A DNA stretch of 63,081 bases, from the IMG/VR virus record IMGVR_UViG_3300024187_000008, positions 1 through 63,081 of that record; one strand, 5' to 3'. Below are positions 3,463 to 47,804 of this stretch, one piece after another. Positions within the stretch are counted from its first letter, which is position 1. The number at the start of each line of letters is the position of its first letter. This DNA is from a virus. Its lineage: Duplodnaviria; Caudoviricetes. Both the position numbers and the translations under genes were made by a program. The notes beneath the pieces are model-generated. The model was not told the DNA's origin. It did not search any database and saw only the letters and a list, made by a program, of their open reading frames with translations.

Positions 3463-3537
3463 CGCGGGGTAGCTCAGTGGTAGAGCGCCGGACTCATAAT
3501 CCGGTGGTCGCGGGTTCGATTCCCGCCCCCGCCACCA
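3463..3537 (+). tRNA. tRNA with CAT anticodon (Met; fMet/Ile2 identity uncertain), CCA encoded
   Basis: Cloverleaf: acceptor CGCGGGG/CCCCGCC, D arm GCTC-AGTGGTA-GAGC, anticodon arm CCGGA-CTCATAA-TCCGG, T arm GCGGG-TTCGATT-CCCGC, ACCA end. Confidence 0.95.
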
Positions 3538-29118: not shown

Positions 29119-31056
29119 TTACACGGGGTCCCGTGGGGGTAGGAACTCGTCGTCCCAACCGTGACCGGGAGTCATCAGCCCCAGGCCCGCGAGTTCGTCG
29201 CGGTCCATGAGGAACTGGGTGAGTTCCTGGTCGTTCATCGGCTTGCCGACGTTCTTGAGATCGTTGTCCCACGGACGGCGGGGTATTGCTCCCTCGTCGG
29301 ATGGGGCGCCTGGGCGGACGGACGGAGGTGTCCAGCCTGCCTGTTTCGTGAAGCCGTCCGTCATCGCGTCCGCGAGGTCATCATGGCCAACAACGTCGAG
29401 GCGGACGATCTGGTCGATCATCTTGCTGACGATGGGCGGGATGAGGAAGTGCGGGCACTGACGGGGGATGAACTGGTTCTTGACGCGGTCGTACTCGGGC
29501 GGCGGGCAATCGCACGGACCACGGTTGAGGAGGATGCGGACGTGGCCCTCGGCCCAGTGGCCGGCGGCCGTACGGATGCGCGCCTTCTTCTCGGTGGTGC
29601 GGTTGAACTGGATGAACTGGTCCTCGCCGAGCGTGATGCCGGCGGTGCGGAGGATGCCGAGGATGCGGTTCTTGTAGGTGCCCTCCTTGCCGCCGGGCTC
29701 CTTCTCGTCCGTGATGCACTTCAGCATGATCCCGCGCGAGCGCAGGTTCAGGCAGACCTTGACCAGTTCCTTGTTGAAGTCCTCCTCGCGCCACTCGTTC
29801 GAGGCGCGCATCAGGAGGGTGTCGAGGTAGAGGATGCCGTTGTCCTGGTCGCCCTTGATCCAGACCACGATGGCGGAGTCGTCGCCGTCGCCCGCGTTGT
29901 CAATGTTCTTGAACGCGGTGTCGATGTGGACAGTGGCCCACTGTGGCCGGACCTCCCACATGAAGTCCTGGTAGTCCATGTACAGCCAGGGAATCTGCGA
30001 CTCGACGAGGGGAGCCTTCTCGCCCGAGCCAGGGTTGTTCTGCTGCTGGCAGGCGAAGTCTTCGGCATCGCGGGCTTTCGCCTGCGCGATCATGTCCCGG
30101 TCCCACAACAGGGGGTGCGTGGGCTCGCCGGTCTTCTCGTCCTCGGTCTGGTAGAAGAAGACGTGCCAGAGGCCCTTGCCGAACTCCACTTGGTCGAAGA
30201 TCGCCATGTGGGGGCAGGGCATCCCGGACCACGACGCCACGCCTTCCTCGCGGAAGTGCTCGCCGACCACGTCGTTGTCGAGGTAGCGGGTCGCGACGAG
30301 CGACATCAGGCCGTTCGTGTGCAGGGAGTTGTAGGAGGCGTTGACCGCTTCCTTCTGGCCGCGCAGGTACGCGACCTTGTCCTTCTTCAGCTTGGTCTTC
30401 TGGAGCGGGTCGTCCCACCAGCACTGGCGGGGATGGTAGCCGGTCGCGCCGATCGAGGAGGATGACGTATCCAGCGAGGGCTCAGAGATGTTGCGCGAGT
30501 TGCGGTAGCCGTGGTTGACGTACTGCTTGGTCCAGTCCTTGGCGGAGGAGGACCAGTCGCCGTAGAGCCAGCAGAACCACGAGTCGGAGTCTTCACCCGA
30601 CAGCACGGCCTTCTGGGACTTGAGGATGTCAACGGAGAAGTCTTCGGTGCTGGACTGGATGAGGACCGTCATGTTCGGGTCGTCGAGGCCGGACCAGAGG
30701 GTCCCGCACTTCGTCGCTGAGACGGTCTTGCCGTAGCCTCGGGGGAGGATCGAGGCGATGTGCGTCCGGCCAGGGCGGCCGGTGAGTGCGCGCTTCTTCC
30801 ACGCGAGCAGGTGGCCCTGGAGCCACTGCGAGTAGGGGACGTGGATCGGCTTGTAGAGCCAGCGCGGCTCCGAAGGGTTGGAGCGCAGGTATGCTTCTGC
30901 GCCCCACGCCTTCGTCATGAAGTACCAGAGGGAGTAGGGGTGCGTCCCTACCTTGTCGCCCTCGAACCAAGAGTTCGGAGCGCAGATCGAACGCCAGAGA
31001 TCGCGTTCCGCATCCAGGTCCCAAGCCACTGAAGTCTGAACCGTAGCTTGAGCCAT
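29119..31056 (-). CDS. terL: Terminase large subunit
   Basis: Walker A PRGYGKT, TG.H...WWDDP Walker B, ATRY..ND coupling motif, FACQQQNNP, nuclease IDTA/DDSA/HDDLADA. Confidence 0.92.
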   Translation of the reverse strand: MAQATVQTSVAWDLDAERDLWRSICAPNSWFEGDKVGTHPYSLWYFMTKAWGAEAYLRSNPSEPRWLYKPIHVPYSQWLQGHLLAWKKRALTGRPGRTHIASILPRGYGKTVSATKCGTLWSGLDDPNMTVLIQSSTEDFSVDILKSQKAVLSGEDSDSWFCWLYGDWSSSAKDWTKQYVNHGYRNSRNISEPSLDTSSSSIGATGYHPRQCWWDDPLQKTKLKKDKVAYLRGQKEAVNASYNSLHTNGLMSLVATRYLDNDVVGEHFREEGVASWSGMPCPHMAIFDQVEFGKGLWHVFFYQTEDEKTGEPTHPLLWDRDMIAQAKARDAEDFACQQQNNPGSGEKAPLVESQIPWLYMDYQDFMWEVRPQWATVHIDTAFKNIDNAGDGDDSAIVVWIKGDQDNGILYLDTLLMRASNEWREEDFNKELVKVCLNLRSRGIMLKCITDEKEPGGKEGTYKNRILGILRTAGITLGEDQFIQFNRTTEKKARIRTAAGHWAEGHVRILLNRGPCDCPPPEYDRVKNQFIPRQCPHFLIPPIVSKMIDQIVRLDVVGHDDLADAMTDGFTKQAGWTPPSVRPGAPSDEGAIPRRPWDNDLKNVGKPMNDQELTQFLMDRDELAGLGLMTPGHGWDDEFLPPRDPV

Positions 31057-34141: not shown

Positions 34142-34235
34142 AGCCCCCCGCTTTCTGGTATCCCGGCCCCTTCGCCCCCCTTTTCGACCCGCGTTTGGGG
34201 TCGTACCGGGTGGGCCTGCCCTGCTCGCGCCCTGC

Positions 34236-34251
34236 TGGCACGCACCTTGCT
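34236..34251 (+). promoter_or_regulatory. Sigma54-type -24/-12 element
   Basis: TGGCACGCACCTTGCT is a perfect TGGCACG-N4-TTGCW match. Confidence 0.55.
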
Positions 34252-34349
34252 AGCGCCCGCACGTCTCATGCCAACGTGCACCTCGCACGACGCCCAGGCG
34301 CGCATCGGTGGGCCACCTCCGGGCGGTTTCCACCCCGCGAGGGCGCCCC

Positions 34350-34369
34350 TCCAGACTCATCATACCACA
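34350..34369 (-). promoter_or_regulatory. Extended -10 promoter for the leftward (packaging/virion) arm, with conserved AGTCTGGA motif
   Basis: Minus strand TGTGGTATGATGAGTCTGGA; 18/20 identical to each of the sites at 42497 and 57458. Confidence 0.65.
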
Positions 34370-34467
34370 TCCCGCGCCAAGAACCGTGCCAAAGCGTGTC
34401 AATCCTTTGTCAAGAGGCGCCGCGCGGGCACACGTAACCCCTTGAACCGGGCCGAAGTGCGCGCAGG

Positions 34468-34485
34468 TGTCAAGGTACCTTGACA
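34468..34485. promoter_or_regulatory. Perfect 18-bp palindrome (operator/back-to-back TTGACA)
   Basis: TGTCAAGGTACCTTGACA. Confidence 0.6.
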
Positions 34486-34593
34486 GGCGGCACGGCGGCG
34501 CAACCGTGCGGTTTGCCCCACCTGCGAGGGCATTTCGCCCAGTTTGGCGCTCCCTCGGCTGGTCGCTCTGTTGCAGCACAACGAGTTAGCGGC

Positions 34594-34609
34594 TGGCACG
34601 GAGAGTGCA
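34594..34609 (+). promoter_or_regulatory. Sigma54-type -24/-12 element upstream of the early structured leader
   Basis: TGGCACGGAGAGTGCA (one mismatch); predicted start near 34620. Confidence 0.5.
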
Positions 34610-34963
34610 CTACCGTATCGCTGTCGTCGGCAGCGGCCGGCGACCCGAGGGTAGCGCCAAGAGCCCGAAGGGACCCGCAAGGTCCCCGTGGGACGGCAGA
34701 GCGGGCCTTCGACAGCAGGCAGCGGGTGGCGGGAGCCACCTGCGAGTCCAGAACGCCGATGAGGTGTCGCGCTGAACCCAACGCTGAGGTAGGCGCCCAT
34801 GACCGTAGCGGCCGGCTGGACCTGACAGAGTGCGAGGCTCAAGTAAACACGGCCGGAACCCGAAGCCCGGGGCGCACGAATAGCAGGTGGCAGAATCGAG
34901 CGGTGCGCTGGTGAAGCGCGGCCGGAGTCGATTCGGCCTGCACCGCCACCCCAAAGGGTGGCC

Positions 34964-35013
34964 CGGTCGCGTGCTGCACTAGCACGCCTGAAGAGCCCGC
35001 AAGGGCGAAACCG
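34964..35013 (+). ncRNA. Hammerhead ribozyme 1 (type III)
   Basis: CGG-TC (GUC site) / stem I GCGTGCT-GCACT-AGCACGC / CTGAAGA / stem II GCCC-GCAA-GGGC / GAAA / CCG. Confidence 0.9.
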
Positions 35014-35024
35014 AGGAGGACACG

Positions 35025-35174
35025 ATGCACAAGCCGAGCAAGTTCCAGAAGGTGCTGCGCGCCGAGAACCGTTTCTTCGCCGGCAAGACGAAGCGCGGCC
35101 GTGCGTGGCTCGCCAAGAAGGTCGCCAACCGCCTCGCGTGGTTCCGTGCGCACCCGAAGGCCCCGCTGATCTAG
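35025..35174 (+). CDS. Small basic early protein (49 aa), flanked by two hammerheads
   Basis: MHKPSKFQKVLRAENRFF...; RBS GAGGAGG; below the ORF-track size cutoff. Confidence 0.7.
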   Translation: MHKPSKFQKVLRAENRFFAGKTKRGRAWLAKKVANRLAWFRAHPKAPLI

Positions 35175-35176
35175 CA

Positions 35177-35297
35177 GGACGAAACGCCCAACGGTGCATC
35201 GGCCGATGTACCGGCCTGACGGAGCGAAAGCGGCTAGGCGCCGTGAGTAGTAGCCGGCAGGCGGGCGTAGCGCGGTCAAGCCGCGCCTGATGAGTCC
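35177..35297 (+). ncRNA. Hammerhead ribozyme 2 (type II, large stem III insert)
   Basis: GGAC-GAAA-CGCCC..(73 nt)..GGGCG-TA (GUA site)-GCGCGG-TCAAG-CCGCGC-CTGATGA-GTCC. Confidence 0.88.
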
Positions 35298-35315
35298 CAA
35301 GCTGAGGAGGTCCAG

Positions 35316-35504
35316 ATGCATGACGTGCGCTATGAGTCGCACGGTTCGCTGTGCCTGTTCCGGCTCCTGACCGACGCCGCCCGCAACTGGGTGGAGGAGA
35401 ATGTCAACGAGCCCAACTACTTCGGTGGCGCTCTCGTGTGCGAGCCACGCTACGCATACGACCTCGTCACCGGCATGAGGGAGGGCGGCCTTCGGGTCGC
35501 GTGA
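35316..35504 (+). CDS. Small early protein
   Basis: MHDVRYESHG...; RBS GAGGAGG. Confidence 0.7.
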   Translation: MHDVRYESHGSLCLFRLLTDAARNWVEENVNEPNYFGGALVCEPRYAYDLVTGMREGGLRVA

Positions 35505-35506
35505 CC

Positions 35507-35725
35507 ATGACACGCAAGGACTACGTTGTACTCGCCCGTGCTCTGAGCACGACGAAGCCCACCCGCGTTGGTCCCGCCGGCTACGCCTTCGCGAGGATTC
35601 GCGCGCAGTGGGTACACGACCTCATGGTCGTCTGTAACGCACTGGAGGCGGACAATCCCCGCTTCGAACGGAGGCGCTTTCTTCAGGCGGCCGGCTACTT
35701 CACGCAGGAGGCACCAACATGCTGA
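35507..35725 (+). CDS. Small conserved phage early protein (MTRKDY...DNPRF..RF..A type)
   Basis: Recognisable motif pattern; function unknown. Confidence 0.65.
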   Translation: MTRKDYVVLARALSTTKPTRVGPAGYAFARIRAQWVHDLMVVCNALEADNPRFERRRFLQAAGYFTQEAPTC

Positions 35726-36117
35726 CCACTGGGCAGTGTCAGGTCGCTGCATACCTGACGGACGGCGATGTCATCTGCACCGACTGCGCCGAACACCGCA
35801 TCAACTTCAACGAGGAGGACCGCTACGACGAACTCGTGGATGAGGAGCCGGGCGACGAGGCCCCCTCGTGGCACCGCGAGCGCGAACTGCGCAAGCAGGC
35901 CGAGGCAGAGCGGCGTGAGTGCGAGGAGGCCAAGGGCCTTCGCCCCCTGATCCAGTACGAACTGGACAGCGACGAGTGCTGGCAGGAGGACGGCTTGACC
36001 TGCGGCGACTGTGGTGCTATTCTCGTGGAGCCGTACGAGGACCCCGAGGCTGTACTGACCGACGAGGCCGAGGACATGGATGCGTGGCTCGCCGACGAGC
36101 AGAAGGAGAACCTGTGA
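35719..36117 (+). CDS. Acidic protein with split CxxC/CxxC zinc site
   Basis: ICTDC...TCGDCG; GGAGG RBS. Confidence 0.65.
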   Translation: MLTTGQCQVAAYLTDGDVICTDCAEHRINFNEEDRYDELVDEEPGDEAPSWHRERELRKQAEAERRECEEAKGLRPLIQYELDSDECWQEDGLTCGDCGAILVEPYEDPEAVLTDEAEDMDAWLADEQKENL

Positions 36118-36212
36118 ACCTGAACCCGCTTCAGATTGTCATCATCGTGGCAGCCCTCGCGTTCTTGGGCTTCGTCGCGATCATCACCCGGGACCTCCGG
36201 CGGAAGTACTAA
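36114..36212 (+). CDS. Small single-TM peptide
   Basis: GTG start after AAGGAG; NLNPLQIVIIVAALAFLGFVAII-RDLRRKY. Confidence 0.55.
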   Translation: MNLNPLQIVIIVAALAFLGFVAIITRDLRRKY

Positions 36213-36328
36213 GGTCGAAACGTGTGGGACAAGTCGCGGATGCGCTACAAACGGGATAGTCTGCACTGAGCGCCCGTAGTCACCCACGGCCCACACGTCG
36301 CACCGTCAAGCGGTGCCTGATGATGACC
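36213..36328 (+). ncRNA. Hammerhead ribozyme 3 (type II, large stem III insert)
   Basis: GGTC-GAAA-CGTGTGGG..(61 nt)..CCCACACG-TC (GUC site)-GCACCG-TCAAG-CGGTGC-CTGATGA-T-GACC. Confidence 0.88.
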
Positions 36329-36348
36329 CACTACACGGGAGGCACAAG

Positions 36349-36576
36349 ATGCATATCACCGAGCGGGCATGGACCCGCATCACGCCATGGGACGTGGCAA
36401 CGTCGCCCCTCACGGGTGACATCGTCCCGATCCTGTCGTTCCAGTCTCAGGAGGATGCAGCGCGTGCCGTGCGTGAGCACAACATGCTGCTGCCCACCTC
36501 CGCCTTCGGGCCGGCGTATCAGGGACCCTTCGGGCGCTACGACTTCCTCCAGCTTGACAAGGAGGACGAATCGTGA
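36349..36576 (+). CDS. Small early protein
   Basis: MHITERAW...; RBS GGGAGG. Confidence 0.65.
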   Translation: MHITERAWTRITPWDVATSPLTGDIVPILSFQSQEDAARAVREHNMLLPTSAFGPAYQGPFGRYDFLQLDKEDES

Positions 36577-37040
36577 AGGACATCCACGATCCCCTCGACG
36601 CTGCCGTGGTGCTCAAGGTGGCGGTGCACAAGCTGCCCGGTGGTGAGCGCGGCTGGTGGCGGTGTGACACCGACACGATCCACGTCAACCCCGCGTCACC
36701 TTACGCCCTGTGGTCCGTGGGACACGAGGTGGGGCACGCAACAGGTGCAGCGAACCGTCTGAACCGTCGCGCGATGCAGTTCTACTATCGCGAGATGAAC
36801 AAGACCATCTTCGCCTATCTGTTCCAGAAGTACCTCAACCGCACCTGCGTCCGCGCCGAGGAGGCCATCTGTGACCTCGTGGCGTACACCTTGACCGGCA
36901 AGACTCGTGTCGATGCCGTAGGCCACCGGAGTGGCTACGGGCAAGTCACCCCCGGCACCCGCACCGACCGGTACGTCCAGTACCACGCGCAGAAGGCCAT
37001 CGAGTATATCACCGCGCAGGTCCAGCAGGAGGCAGCGTGA
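36573..37040 (+). CDS. Zincin-like domain protein resembling the ArdC C-terminal (MPTase) domain
   Basis: HEVGHATG..NRLNR....EEAICDL. Confidence 0.65.
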   Translation: MKDIHDPLDAAVVLKVAVHKLPGGERGWWRCDTDTIHVNPASPYALWSVGHEVGHATGAANRLNRRAMQFYYREMNKTIFAYLFQKYLNRTCVRAEEAICDLVAYTLTGKTRVDAVGHRSGYGQVTPGTRTDRYVQYHAQKAIEYITAQVQQEAA

Positions 37041-46180: not shown

Positions 46181-46911
46181 ATGAAGTTCAAGCGCATCGA
46201 GTTCGACTGTATCAGGCAGCAGGTCATCCCCGGCGTCTGGTGGTGGGGACGCAACATCCACCTCGTCTACTCGGCCGCCCTGCTCCTCGACAAGATGATG
46301 ATCGGAGAGGGCCAGACCTTCACCGTTCACATCCCTGACGTCTTGGAGGAGGCCACGATCCATCGCACGGACGTGGACAGCACGTTCGCCTTCTACTCGG
46401 ACGGCACCGACAAGGTCGGCCTCTGCGTGTGGGAGTTGGTCCGCATCTTCCACTGCCTACCCTCGGCGCTGGTGATCGAGAAGTGACCCACATCAAGACG
46501 CACGAGGAGTTGCTCAACGAGTTGTACGAAGCGATCGCGGCGGACGCCAAGGAACTCGGGGTCTACCCCGAGTACAAGGACCTGACCGACCTCTTCTACA
46601 ACATGAAGACCACCCTCGACCTGTACCACGACGTGACCGCCACACTGCGGGGCAACCCGCCGAAGGAGAACACCATGATCCACCGTGTGCAGGGCGAAGT
46701 CGTCCTCAGAGCCACGAACAACCACGACGACGACATCGCCACGATTCGCCCGGCCAAGTTCGCGCCGGTCGAGTTCAACATCGACACCTCCACCCCCGGC
46801 GGCGCCACGATCCGTCTCCGCTTCTATCTGTACCAGCCCTCTTCGATGCGCCGGCTCGCCGAACTCTTCACCGAAGCCGCCGACGAGGCCGAGATCAGAG
46901 ACGCCCGATGA
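46181..46911 (+). other. Two hypothetical genes (46181-46486, 46483-46911)
   Basis: AAGGAG RBS, coupled junction. Confidence 0.6.
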
Positions 46912-47804
46912 GCGATCCGAACCGCGCTGCCGAGAAGGCGGCCAAGCAGGCGGCCAAGAAGGCCGCGTACGAGGCGCAGATCGCCGCCCTCCCTCCGTTC
47001 GTGGAGTGGCCGAAGATCGCGCGCCTCAACCGTGACATCGTCATCACCGAGAAGATCGACGGCACCAACGCCGCGATCGGTATCGTCGAGGACACCACGT
47101 ACGACGACTCGATCCCGGGTACCCGGATCGCGAGCACGAGCTACCGCGTGTACGCCCAGTCGCGCACCCGCATCATCACGATCGGCAACGACAACTTCGG
47201 CTTCGCCCAGTGGGTCGAGACGCACCGCGAGGCGCTCATCAAGGCGCTCGGTCCCGGCCTCCACTTCGGCGAGTGGTGGGGCGTCGGCATCGGTCGCCAC
47301 TACAACCTGAGCGAACGTCGCTTCTCGCTCTTCAACACGGCACGCTGGAGCCGGCCCGAAGGACAGGCCGCACTGGAGGTCGCACGCTCCGAGGGAGCAG
47401 CCATCTACGTGGTCCCGACCTTGTACGTCGGCCCATGGACTGGCGTCTTCGGGTACAAGGATGGCGACACGGGCGAGTGGCTCACGGCCCCGCAGAACTG
47501 GGACGTGTTCGACGCCGAGGCTGCGAAGCACAAGGCCATGCGTGACGAAATCTACCGGCGCGTGCGCGAGGTCGGCGATCAGGTCGAGGGTGACGAGATC
47601 ATCGAGCAACTCGACGCCGCGCTCCGCTTCAACCCTCGGCCGCGCTTCGCTCCGAACTTCATCATGGAGTGGCTCAAGCGGGTCGGGTCCCAGGCAGCGC
47701 CGGGCTTCATGCAGCCGGAAGGTATCGTCGTGTTTCACCGCGTCTCGGGCACCATCCTGAAGGCGACGGCCGAGCATGACGAAGTGCACAAGGGGGAGGT
47801 CTAA
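46908..47804 (+). CDS. ATP-dependent RNA ligase (Rnl2-like nucleotidyltransferase domain)
   Basis: Motif I TEKIDGTN, QSR, DNFGF, motif III FGEW.G.GI, IIIa F.LFN, VP.LY.G, motif IV PEGIVV, terminal K. Confidence 0.88.
   Translation: MSDPNRAAEKAAKQAAKKAAYEAQIAALPPFVEWPKIARLNRDIVITEKIDGTNAAIGIVEDTTYDDSIPGTRIASTSYRVYAQSRTRIITIGNDNFGFAQWVETHREALIKALGPGLHFGEWWGVGIGRHYNLSERRFSLFNTARWSRPEGQAALEVARSEGAAIYVVPTLYVGPWTGVFGYKDGDTGEWLTAPQNWDVFDAEAAKHKAMRDEIYRRVREVGDQVEGDEIIEQLDAALRFNPRPRFAPNFIMEWLKRVGSQAAPGFMQPEGIVVFHRVSGTILKATAEHDEVHKGEV

Follow-up and report, generated by a model that had tools for sequence, protein, structure and literature searches.

What would a self-cleaving RNA do directly before the first gene of a phage operon? 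The question is raised by a short stretch of DNA from an uncultivated soil phage (34964-35013, + strand), which the initial annotation described as a type III hammerhead placed just ahead of the first open reading frame. The window, that is, the whole stretch of DNA analysed here, is the entire virus record IMGVR_UViG_3300024187_000008: a linear sequence of 63,081 bp with about 65% G+C and an estimated completeness of about 98%. Matches to a terminase and a DNA polymerase mark it as a phage. Judging from its letters and from those of its relatives, we find that 34964-35013, hereafter HH-A, is very probably a genuine self-cleaving type III hammerhead ribozyme. With two further hammerheads on the same strand, HH-B and HH-C, the locus looks like a processing array and not like a lone leader ribozyme.

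The genes around the element are arranged in two divergent arms. The large terminase (TerL) gene lies at 29119-31056 on the - strand (phrog_38, E 1e-31), while the + strand carries, from about 35 kb on, matches to a primase/helicase, an RNA ligase, a Sak4-like protein and a DNA polymerase. The periodicity of GC3 indicates coding DNA until about 34070 on the left and again, on the right, from about 34950, and the part in between lacks such a signal; the non-coding region separating the arms spans 34142-34963 (820 nt, + strand) and is devoid of GC3 periodicity. The first ORF of the + strand operon is basic and encodes 49 amino acids (35025-35174, + strand); GC3 in it rises to 0.95. It has no family match; four of its five listed variant sites in related contigs are third codon positions. 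Its Shine-Dalgarno sequence GAGGAGG occupies 35013-35019 (+ strand), followed by the ATG at 35025. Elsewhere in the genome, a tRNA gene (3463-3534, + strand, 74.4 bits, anticodon loop CAU) is the sole Rfam match at gathering level. DNA and protein searches of a phage collection gave no match to this phage, a neighbouring protein of 253 amino acids has no relative among the viral contigs, and a search of genome contigs with TerL returned no prophage relative.

The three stems of HH-A, I, II and III, contain 8, 4 and 4 base pairs, and the predicted cut falls between C34968 and G34969 on the + strand. Stem III (CGGU/ACCG) joins 34964-34967 to 35010-35013. Stem I pairs 34969-34976 with 34980-34987 through seven Watson-Crick pairs and one G-U around a CAC loop, and stem II (GCCC/GGGC, 34995-35006) is capped by GCAA. 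The core is made of CUGAAGA (34988-34994) and GAA (35007-35009), with A35010-U34967 as the A15.1-U16.1 pair and C34968 as H17. At every position it agrees with the hammerhead core given in the methods of PMC3088659: C3 U4 G5 A6 N7 G8 A9, G12 A13 A14, A15.1-U16.1 and an H17 other than G. The pairs adjacent to the core are all canonical, namely G34969-C34987 (1.1-2.1), G34995-C35006 (10.1-11.1) and A35010-U34967 (15.1-16.1). Stems I and II are closed by loops and stem III is open, which is the type III topology. The letters and our descriptor thus bear out the core, stems and cleavage site that had been assigned to the element.

With stems required, the descriptor finds HH-A to be the sole type III hammerhead in the genome. 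Model R1 gives it 67.8 bits and otherwise yields just a weak echo of HH-B. The MFE fold of the isolated 58 nt is a three-way junction. When the 591 nt from 34440 to 35030 are folded, the 5' strand of stem III pairs with 34446-34453 instead; this alternative pairing is no better than that obtained with shuffled queries and is absent in the related loci L001, L002, L004 and L031 (L-numbers denote viral-contig loci). Among 13 copies from the window and its relatives, 11 have a stem I of six pairs followed by a U-purine loop or bulge, and 9 have a stem II of four pairs with a GNNA tetraloop, a geometry that would suit the loop-loop or bulge-loop contact between stems I and II on which activity at physiological Mg2+ depends.

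How readily would such an element arise by chance? The bare core (CUGANGA, 6-36 nt, GAAA) is found once, against 2.12 expected occurrences, and is not above chance. Once stems are required, a loose type III match appears in 10 of 1500 dinucleotide shuffles and one as good as HH-A in none of the 1500. With all three topologies allowed, 1000 shuffles contain five strict matches. The real genome has two, to which HH-C is added by allowing for an extra nucleotide, and all of them sit on one strand within 1.4 kb. Since the strict shuffle rate amounts to many chance matches over some 250,000 windows, the case for HH-A rests on conservation. Rfam gives no gathering-score match to HH-A and, with 4 kb of sequence as query, nothing at E<=10; presented with 96 nt, its best result is a partial match to HH9 of 13.4 bits, against a threshold of 52.

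The comparative data come from a TerL search, which returned 17 related viral contigs with 51-78% identity. In eight of them the sequence upstream of TerL exceeds 5 kb; the remaining nine, with at most 3.06 kb there, were left out. A type III hammerhead or a close variant is present in all eight assessable relatives, 3.5-5.0 kb upstream of TerL and on the opposite strand. In the window, HH-A lies 3.9 kb from TerL, likewise on opposite strands. The eight relatives and the window together display five stem I, three stem II and eight stem III sequences, every one of them complementary, and the cleavage triplets GUC, GUU and GUA. The invariant positions are the catalytic ones, while the stems covary. 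In a seven-sequence alignment of the short-form copies, 98.9% of the cells are paired and 11 of the 14 pairs show double changes, a result that none of 500 shuffles reaches; these seven were chosen by a pairing descriptor, so that the test is partly circular and the set chosen by TerL provides the cleaner argument.

Three of the eight relatives deviate in the core at the syntenic site. In L012 (4966-5015, - strand) CCGAAGA replaces CUGAAGA, in L014 (6484-6534, - strand) there is an extra nucleotide in CUGAAUGA, and in L009 (3459-3527, - strand) an extra hairpin separates the core from stem II. Given these variants, strict selection for full activity may not operate everywhere. An exact search of the viral contigs with the 25-nt core gave no match. 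Further descriptor matches, inside TerL of L013 and L017 and at 7632 in L012, have weak stems and long spans, and we consider them false positives.

Scanning all circular permutations of the motif, we found two type II hammerheads on the same strand as HH-A, both missed by the initial annotation. HH-B spans 35177-35297 (+ strand), with a predicted cut after A35269. Its stem II is open (GGAC/GUCC), its stem III has six pairs with an insert of about 70 nt, its stem I has seven pairs, and its core and core-adjacent pairs are canonical. CUGAUGAG at 35287 had been considered as a broken type III hammerhead with no GAAA downstream, an idea dropped once the type II permutation was seen. HH-C spans 36213-36328 (+ strand), with a predicted cut after C36299, a stem III of nine pairs with an insert and a stem I of seven pairs. 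It was found by allowing one extra nucleotide after CUGAUGA, a U between A9 and stem II, and is otherwise canonical; over 27 nt it is 96% identical to the type II hammerhead of L001. In both elements stems I and III are capped and stem II is open, which defines type II.

Model R2, derived from type II copies, gives HH-B 60 bits and HH-C 58.3 bits, and the next best score is 13.8 (33000-63081, unfiltered). The type II copies covary as the type III copies do. The stem III inserts, 35185-35267 in HH-B and 36224-36294 in HH-C, are swapped for other, shorter sequence in other soil metagenome contigs; that of HH-C is replaced by 14 nt in related contigs. Because they are replaced while the cores stay, the inserts appear to be dispensable or fast-evolving. 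By eye, the 3' tails of HH-B and HH-C hold no complement to loop I (UCAAG) that would form a pseudoknot, a contact that PMC3088659 describes in the majority of type II hammerheads and that is common but not obligatory. The order of type III followed by type II recurs in L001, L004 and L031. No hammerhead beyond these three was found in the genome.

The two type II elements fill their intergenic gaps exactly, from the stop codon through the hammerhead to the ribosome site. HH-B begins 2 nt past the stop codon of the 49-aa ORF; 6 nt after its end comes a Shine-Dalgarno GAGGAGG (35304-35310, + strand), and then the ATG at 35316 of a 62-aa ORF (35316-35504, + strand). HH-C directly adjoins a TAA stop codon, and 9 nt past it lies GGGAGG (36337-36342, + strand), with the ATG at 36349 opening a 75-aa ORF (36349-36576, + strand). 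The second ORF past HH-C (36573-37040, + strand) has a weak anti-restriction-like match (phrog_7245, E 5.5e-5; PF18818 below cut-off). Three hammerheads, of types III, II and II, are thereby contained in the first 1.4 kb of the + strand operon of early and replication genes, flanking pieces of 301 and 1030 nt.

We looked at the placement of hammerheads relative to ribosome sites in the window and in the loci, counting 44 of them after L022 and L026 (duplicate loci of the same contig) and L028 (near-identical) were dropped. A Shine-Dalgarno sequence and a start codon of an ORF of at least 30 codons follow within 40 nt in 39 of the 44, at a median of 25 nt; the same holds for 11.9% of 8800 random same-strand positions. 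The gap between hammerhead and Shine-Dalgarno, counted for 43 hammerheads, ranges from -1 to 189 nt and is mostly 0-27 nt. Like the motif itself and its conservation with covariation, this fixed position before ribosome sites is directly observed, and it speaks for a main role of phage hammerheads in setting where each mRNA has its 5' end.

One of the loci is rich in these elements. On the - strand of a 43.8-kb viral contig, about 10 kb (L023:3100-13500) hold 18 descriptor-positive hammerheads, of types I and II. In 15 of them the same ribosome site, CCCAAGGAGG, and a start codon follow 8-27 nt later, which puts a ribozyme in front of most of the genes.

Upstream of HH-A, the non-coding region 34142-34963 would serve the + strand operon as a leader, provided that transcription comes in from upstream. 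Its part next to the ribozyme is strongly structured, with a fold z-score of -4.97 for 34440-35030. It contains no Rfam family at E<=10, chance snoRNA and lncRNA matches aside. A sigma-70 scan upstream of HH-A found no promoter, and hand inspection of the TGTCAA boxes and of -10-like boxes gave no convincing start site. Three TGTCAA(G) boxes lie within 34397-34485, the last inside a perfect 18-bp palindrome (34468-34485), and L001, L002 and L004 have similar repeated boxes at the corresponding position. A regulator probably binds these boxes between the divergent gene arms.

The closest relatives share a conserved block of the leader, 34530-34715, the core of which is a hairpin of 66 nt (34646-34711, + strand). 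The hairpin has invariant internal stretches and, among its 19 pairs, a conserved G-U pair and five pairs with compensatory changes. A motif search recovers the hairpin in six distinct viral contigs, the window included. In all five contigs with enough sequence, a type III hammerhead follows on the same strand 250-550 nt downstream; locus L029, near-identical to L030, ends too early to be assessed. Another match, in L032, lies inside a coding region and was judged to be due to chance. At this locus, only the hairpin may be new. As a tentative and rather unlikely reading, it could represent a hitherto undescribed functional RNA motif linked to the hammerhead: either HH-A would release the leader as a stand-alone non-coding RNA, or the motif would gate cleavage. 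Were this true, the released leader could act, for example, as a regulator or as a decoy of RNA polymerase or of a host factor at the very start of infection; with gating, the hairpin would control ribozyme cleavage and so the expression of the early genes.

We think it likely that the three hammerheads cut the early transcript co-transcriptionally into separate mRNAs that start with a 5'-OH hairpin. Each ribozyme would fold during transcription and cut itself, after C34968, A35269 and C36299, respectively. The first cut would detach the long non-coding leader, put at ~350 nt in the initial annotation, on the assumption that it is co-transcribed. The cuts would give a 301-nt piece with the 49-aa ORF, a 1030-nt piece with several small ORFs, and the remainder. 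The downstream products would open directly with the stem I hairpin, its first base bearing the 5'-OH, and would have a strong Shine-Dalgarno sequence 18-56 nt later; at the type II sites, the long stem III hairpin would form the end of the upstream product and bear a 2',3'-cyclic phosphate. Messages processed in this way would have ends that are defined and protected by hairpins, and their 5' UTR would not depend on the upstream context. It is known that 5'-terminal hairpins and 5'-OH ends slow decay of the RNase E type. From engineered systems and from this general knowledge of RNase E in E. coli, we infer the gain in stability and insulation, with its effect on translation. The short stem III of HH-A, of only four pairs, counts against the proposal, as do the alternative pairing of its 5' strand in the 591-nt fold, the Rfam scores below threshold and the core deviations in three of the eight relatives.

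That the elements are mere look-alikes in GC-rich non-coding DNA is almost certainly wrong. The bare core is indeed at chance level, strict matches occur in about 0.5% of shuffled genomes and Rfam makes no call, but the comparative data contradict this reading: synteny and compensatory changes hold in each of the eight assessable relatives, the same strand has two more hammerheads nearby, and the placement ahead of ribosome sites is constant. It is also quite improbable that selection keeps a structured spacer without efficient cleavage, its catalysis weak or lost, a folded punctuation mark that would protect ends made by host RNases or space the cistrons apart. The core variants in three of the eight relatives and the Rfam scores below threshold are in keeping with such a spacer. 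Against it, the three cores of the window are canonical save for a single tolerated insertion, that of HH-C; it is precisely the catalytic positions that do not vary, whereas the stems covary; and comparable prophage clusters are reported to cleave both in vitro and in E. coli (PMC3088659).

The immediate contact of HH-A with the ribosome site had led to the suggestion that ribozyme folding and ribosome loading are coupled. In such a switch, uncut HH-A would hold part of the Shine-Dalgarno sequence in an extended stem III; upon cleavage the 5-nt upstream strand would leave and free the ribosome site, making translation of the first ORF dependent on the ribozyme. The contact itself stands: stem III abuts GAGGAGG, and G35013 is common to its last pair and to the Shine-Dalgarno sequence. 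The MFE fold of the 58 nt even adds C34963-G35015 and C34962-G35016 past a bulged A, the Shine-Dalgarno sequence directly abuts stem III in L002 and L004 too, and a 2026 paper describes some RNA viruses of eukaryotes in which translation cannot initiate without cleavage by a ribozyme (PMC13725137). The coupling does not follow, as the abutment is not conserved and the computed accessibilities disagree. The Shine-Dalgarno sequence lies 4-26 nt past the hammerhead in the other relatives and 6-9 nt past HH-B and HH-C. At HH-A its mean P(unpaired) is 0.66 after cleavage and, depending on the upstream length, 0.31-0.76 before; for HH-B and HH-C the partition function shows no gain in accessibility. 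No anti-Shine-Dalgarno stretch precedes stem III, and the leader offers no conserved long-range mask. We have rejected unmasking by cleavage in view of accessibilities that are inconsistent across upstream contexts, and regard the switch as distinctly unlikely. Still less probable is the conversion of ribozyme-flanked cassettes, such as the 301-nt piece, into circular or re-ligated RNAs, possibly by a phage RNA ligase. Two same-strand hammerheads do flank the 301-nt segment, and the phage encodes an RNA ligase (46908-47804, + strand; PF09414, 43.1 bits with a cut-off of 27; phrog_548). Ligases of the PF09414 type join 3'-OH to 5'-phosphate ends. Hammerhead products, with a 2',3'-cyclic phosphate and a 5'-OH, are unlike these substrates, and a search of the genome for RtcB or for a polynucleotide kinase/phosphatase domain found neither; on end chemistry, a link between the ligase and the hammerhead products is unlikely. 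Perreault et al. report that they sought spliced or circular products of their hammerheads and found none (PMC3088659). Circularization seems very improbable to us, and processing into separate mRNAs stays our preferred reading.

All three window hammerheads share the catalytic core and the three-helix junction of Rfam clan CL00010 (RF00008 for type III, RF02276 for type II and RF02275 for HH9), yet their scores are far below the gathering thresholds, whereas R1 and R2 separate the elements cleanly, with a wide score gap. HH-A, HH-B and HH-C are all missed by Rfam models at the gathering threshold. Since such elements are invisible to Rfam at curated thresholds, these ribozymes are under-annotated in viral metagenomes.

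The layout, with hammerheads before ribosome sites at the head of an operon, is already known in phages since 2011. In the prophages studied by Perreault et al., hammerheads of types I, II and III occur in clusters around single genes. These RNAs were shown to cleave in vitro as well as in E. coli, and the authors proposed that they divide a transcript into mRNAs of one gene each; a triple arrangement surrounds ardA in Agrobacterium tumefaciens (PMC3088659). In the literature on phage hammerheads adjoining ribosome sites, we found nothing more specific than that work. The role of bacterial and phage hammerheads was still considered open in a 2019 review (PMC6765202). The present locus belongs with these clusters: three same-strand hammerheads at 34964-36328 flank short blocks in a phage genome. 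As in the 2011 clusters, mixed types share one strand of a phage early region with small genes that vary among relatives, and in both cases a long transcript is proposed to be cut into mRNAs of gene length. The anti-restriction-like ORF past HH-C, weak as its match is, is reminiscent of ardA, which is found after hammerheads in Agrobacterium and Legionella (PMC3088659). Unlike the elements described there, the type II hammerheads of the window have 60-70-nt inserts in stem III and no pseudoknot evident by eye, and their phage is unrelated by sequence to anything in the collection searched. The locus adds a clean, conserved case to the 2011 picture and leaves the known concept unchanged.

A close parallel in placement is HHphage of the haloarchaeal viruses HF1 and HF2. 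It stands 13 nt before the start of the first early ORF, within a polycistronic transcript, and the mapped 5' end of the major transcript falls within 3 nt of its cleavage site (PMC3088659); HH-A ends 11 nt before the start codon of its first ORF. The hosts belong to different domains, and HHphage depends on salt and has an atypical core, while that of HH-A is canonical. As to the benefit of such an arrangement, the nearest system is RiboJ, in which the sTRSV hammerhead and a hairpin precede the ribosome-binding site, remove the upstream RNA and leave a structured 5'-OH end. In E. coli, the gain is 2- to 10-fold for protein and about 2-fold for transcript (PMC6206723). RiboJ is an engineered element whose extra hairpin was designed and whose effects were measured in E. 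coli, whereas the hammerheads of the window are read from sequence. If they act as proposed, this would make the hammerhead array a natural counterpart of the RiboJ insulator.
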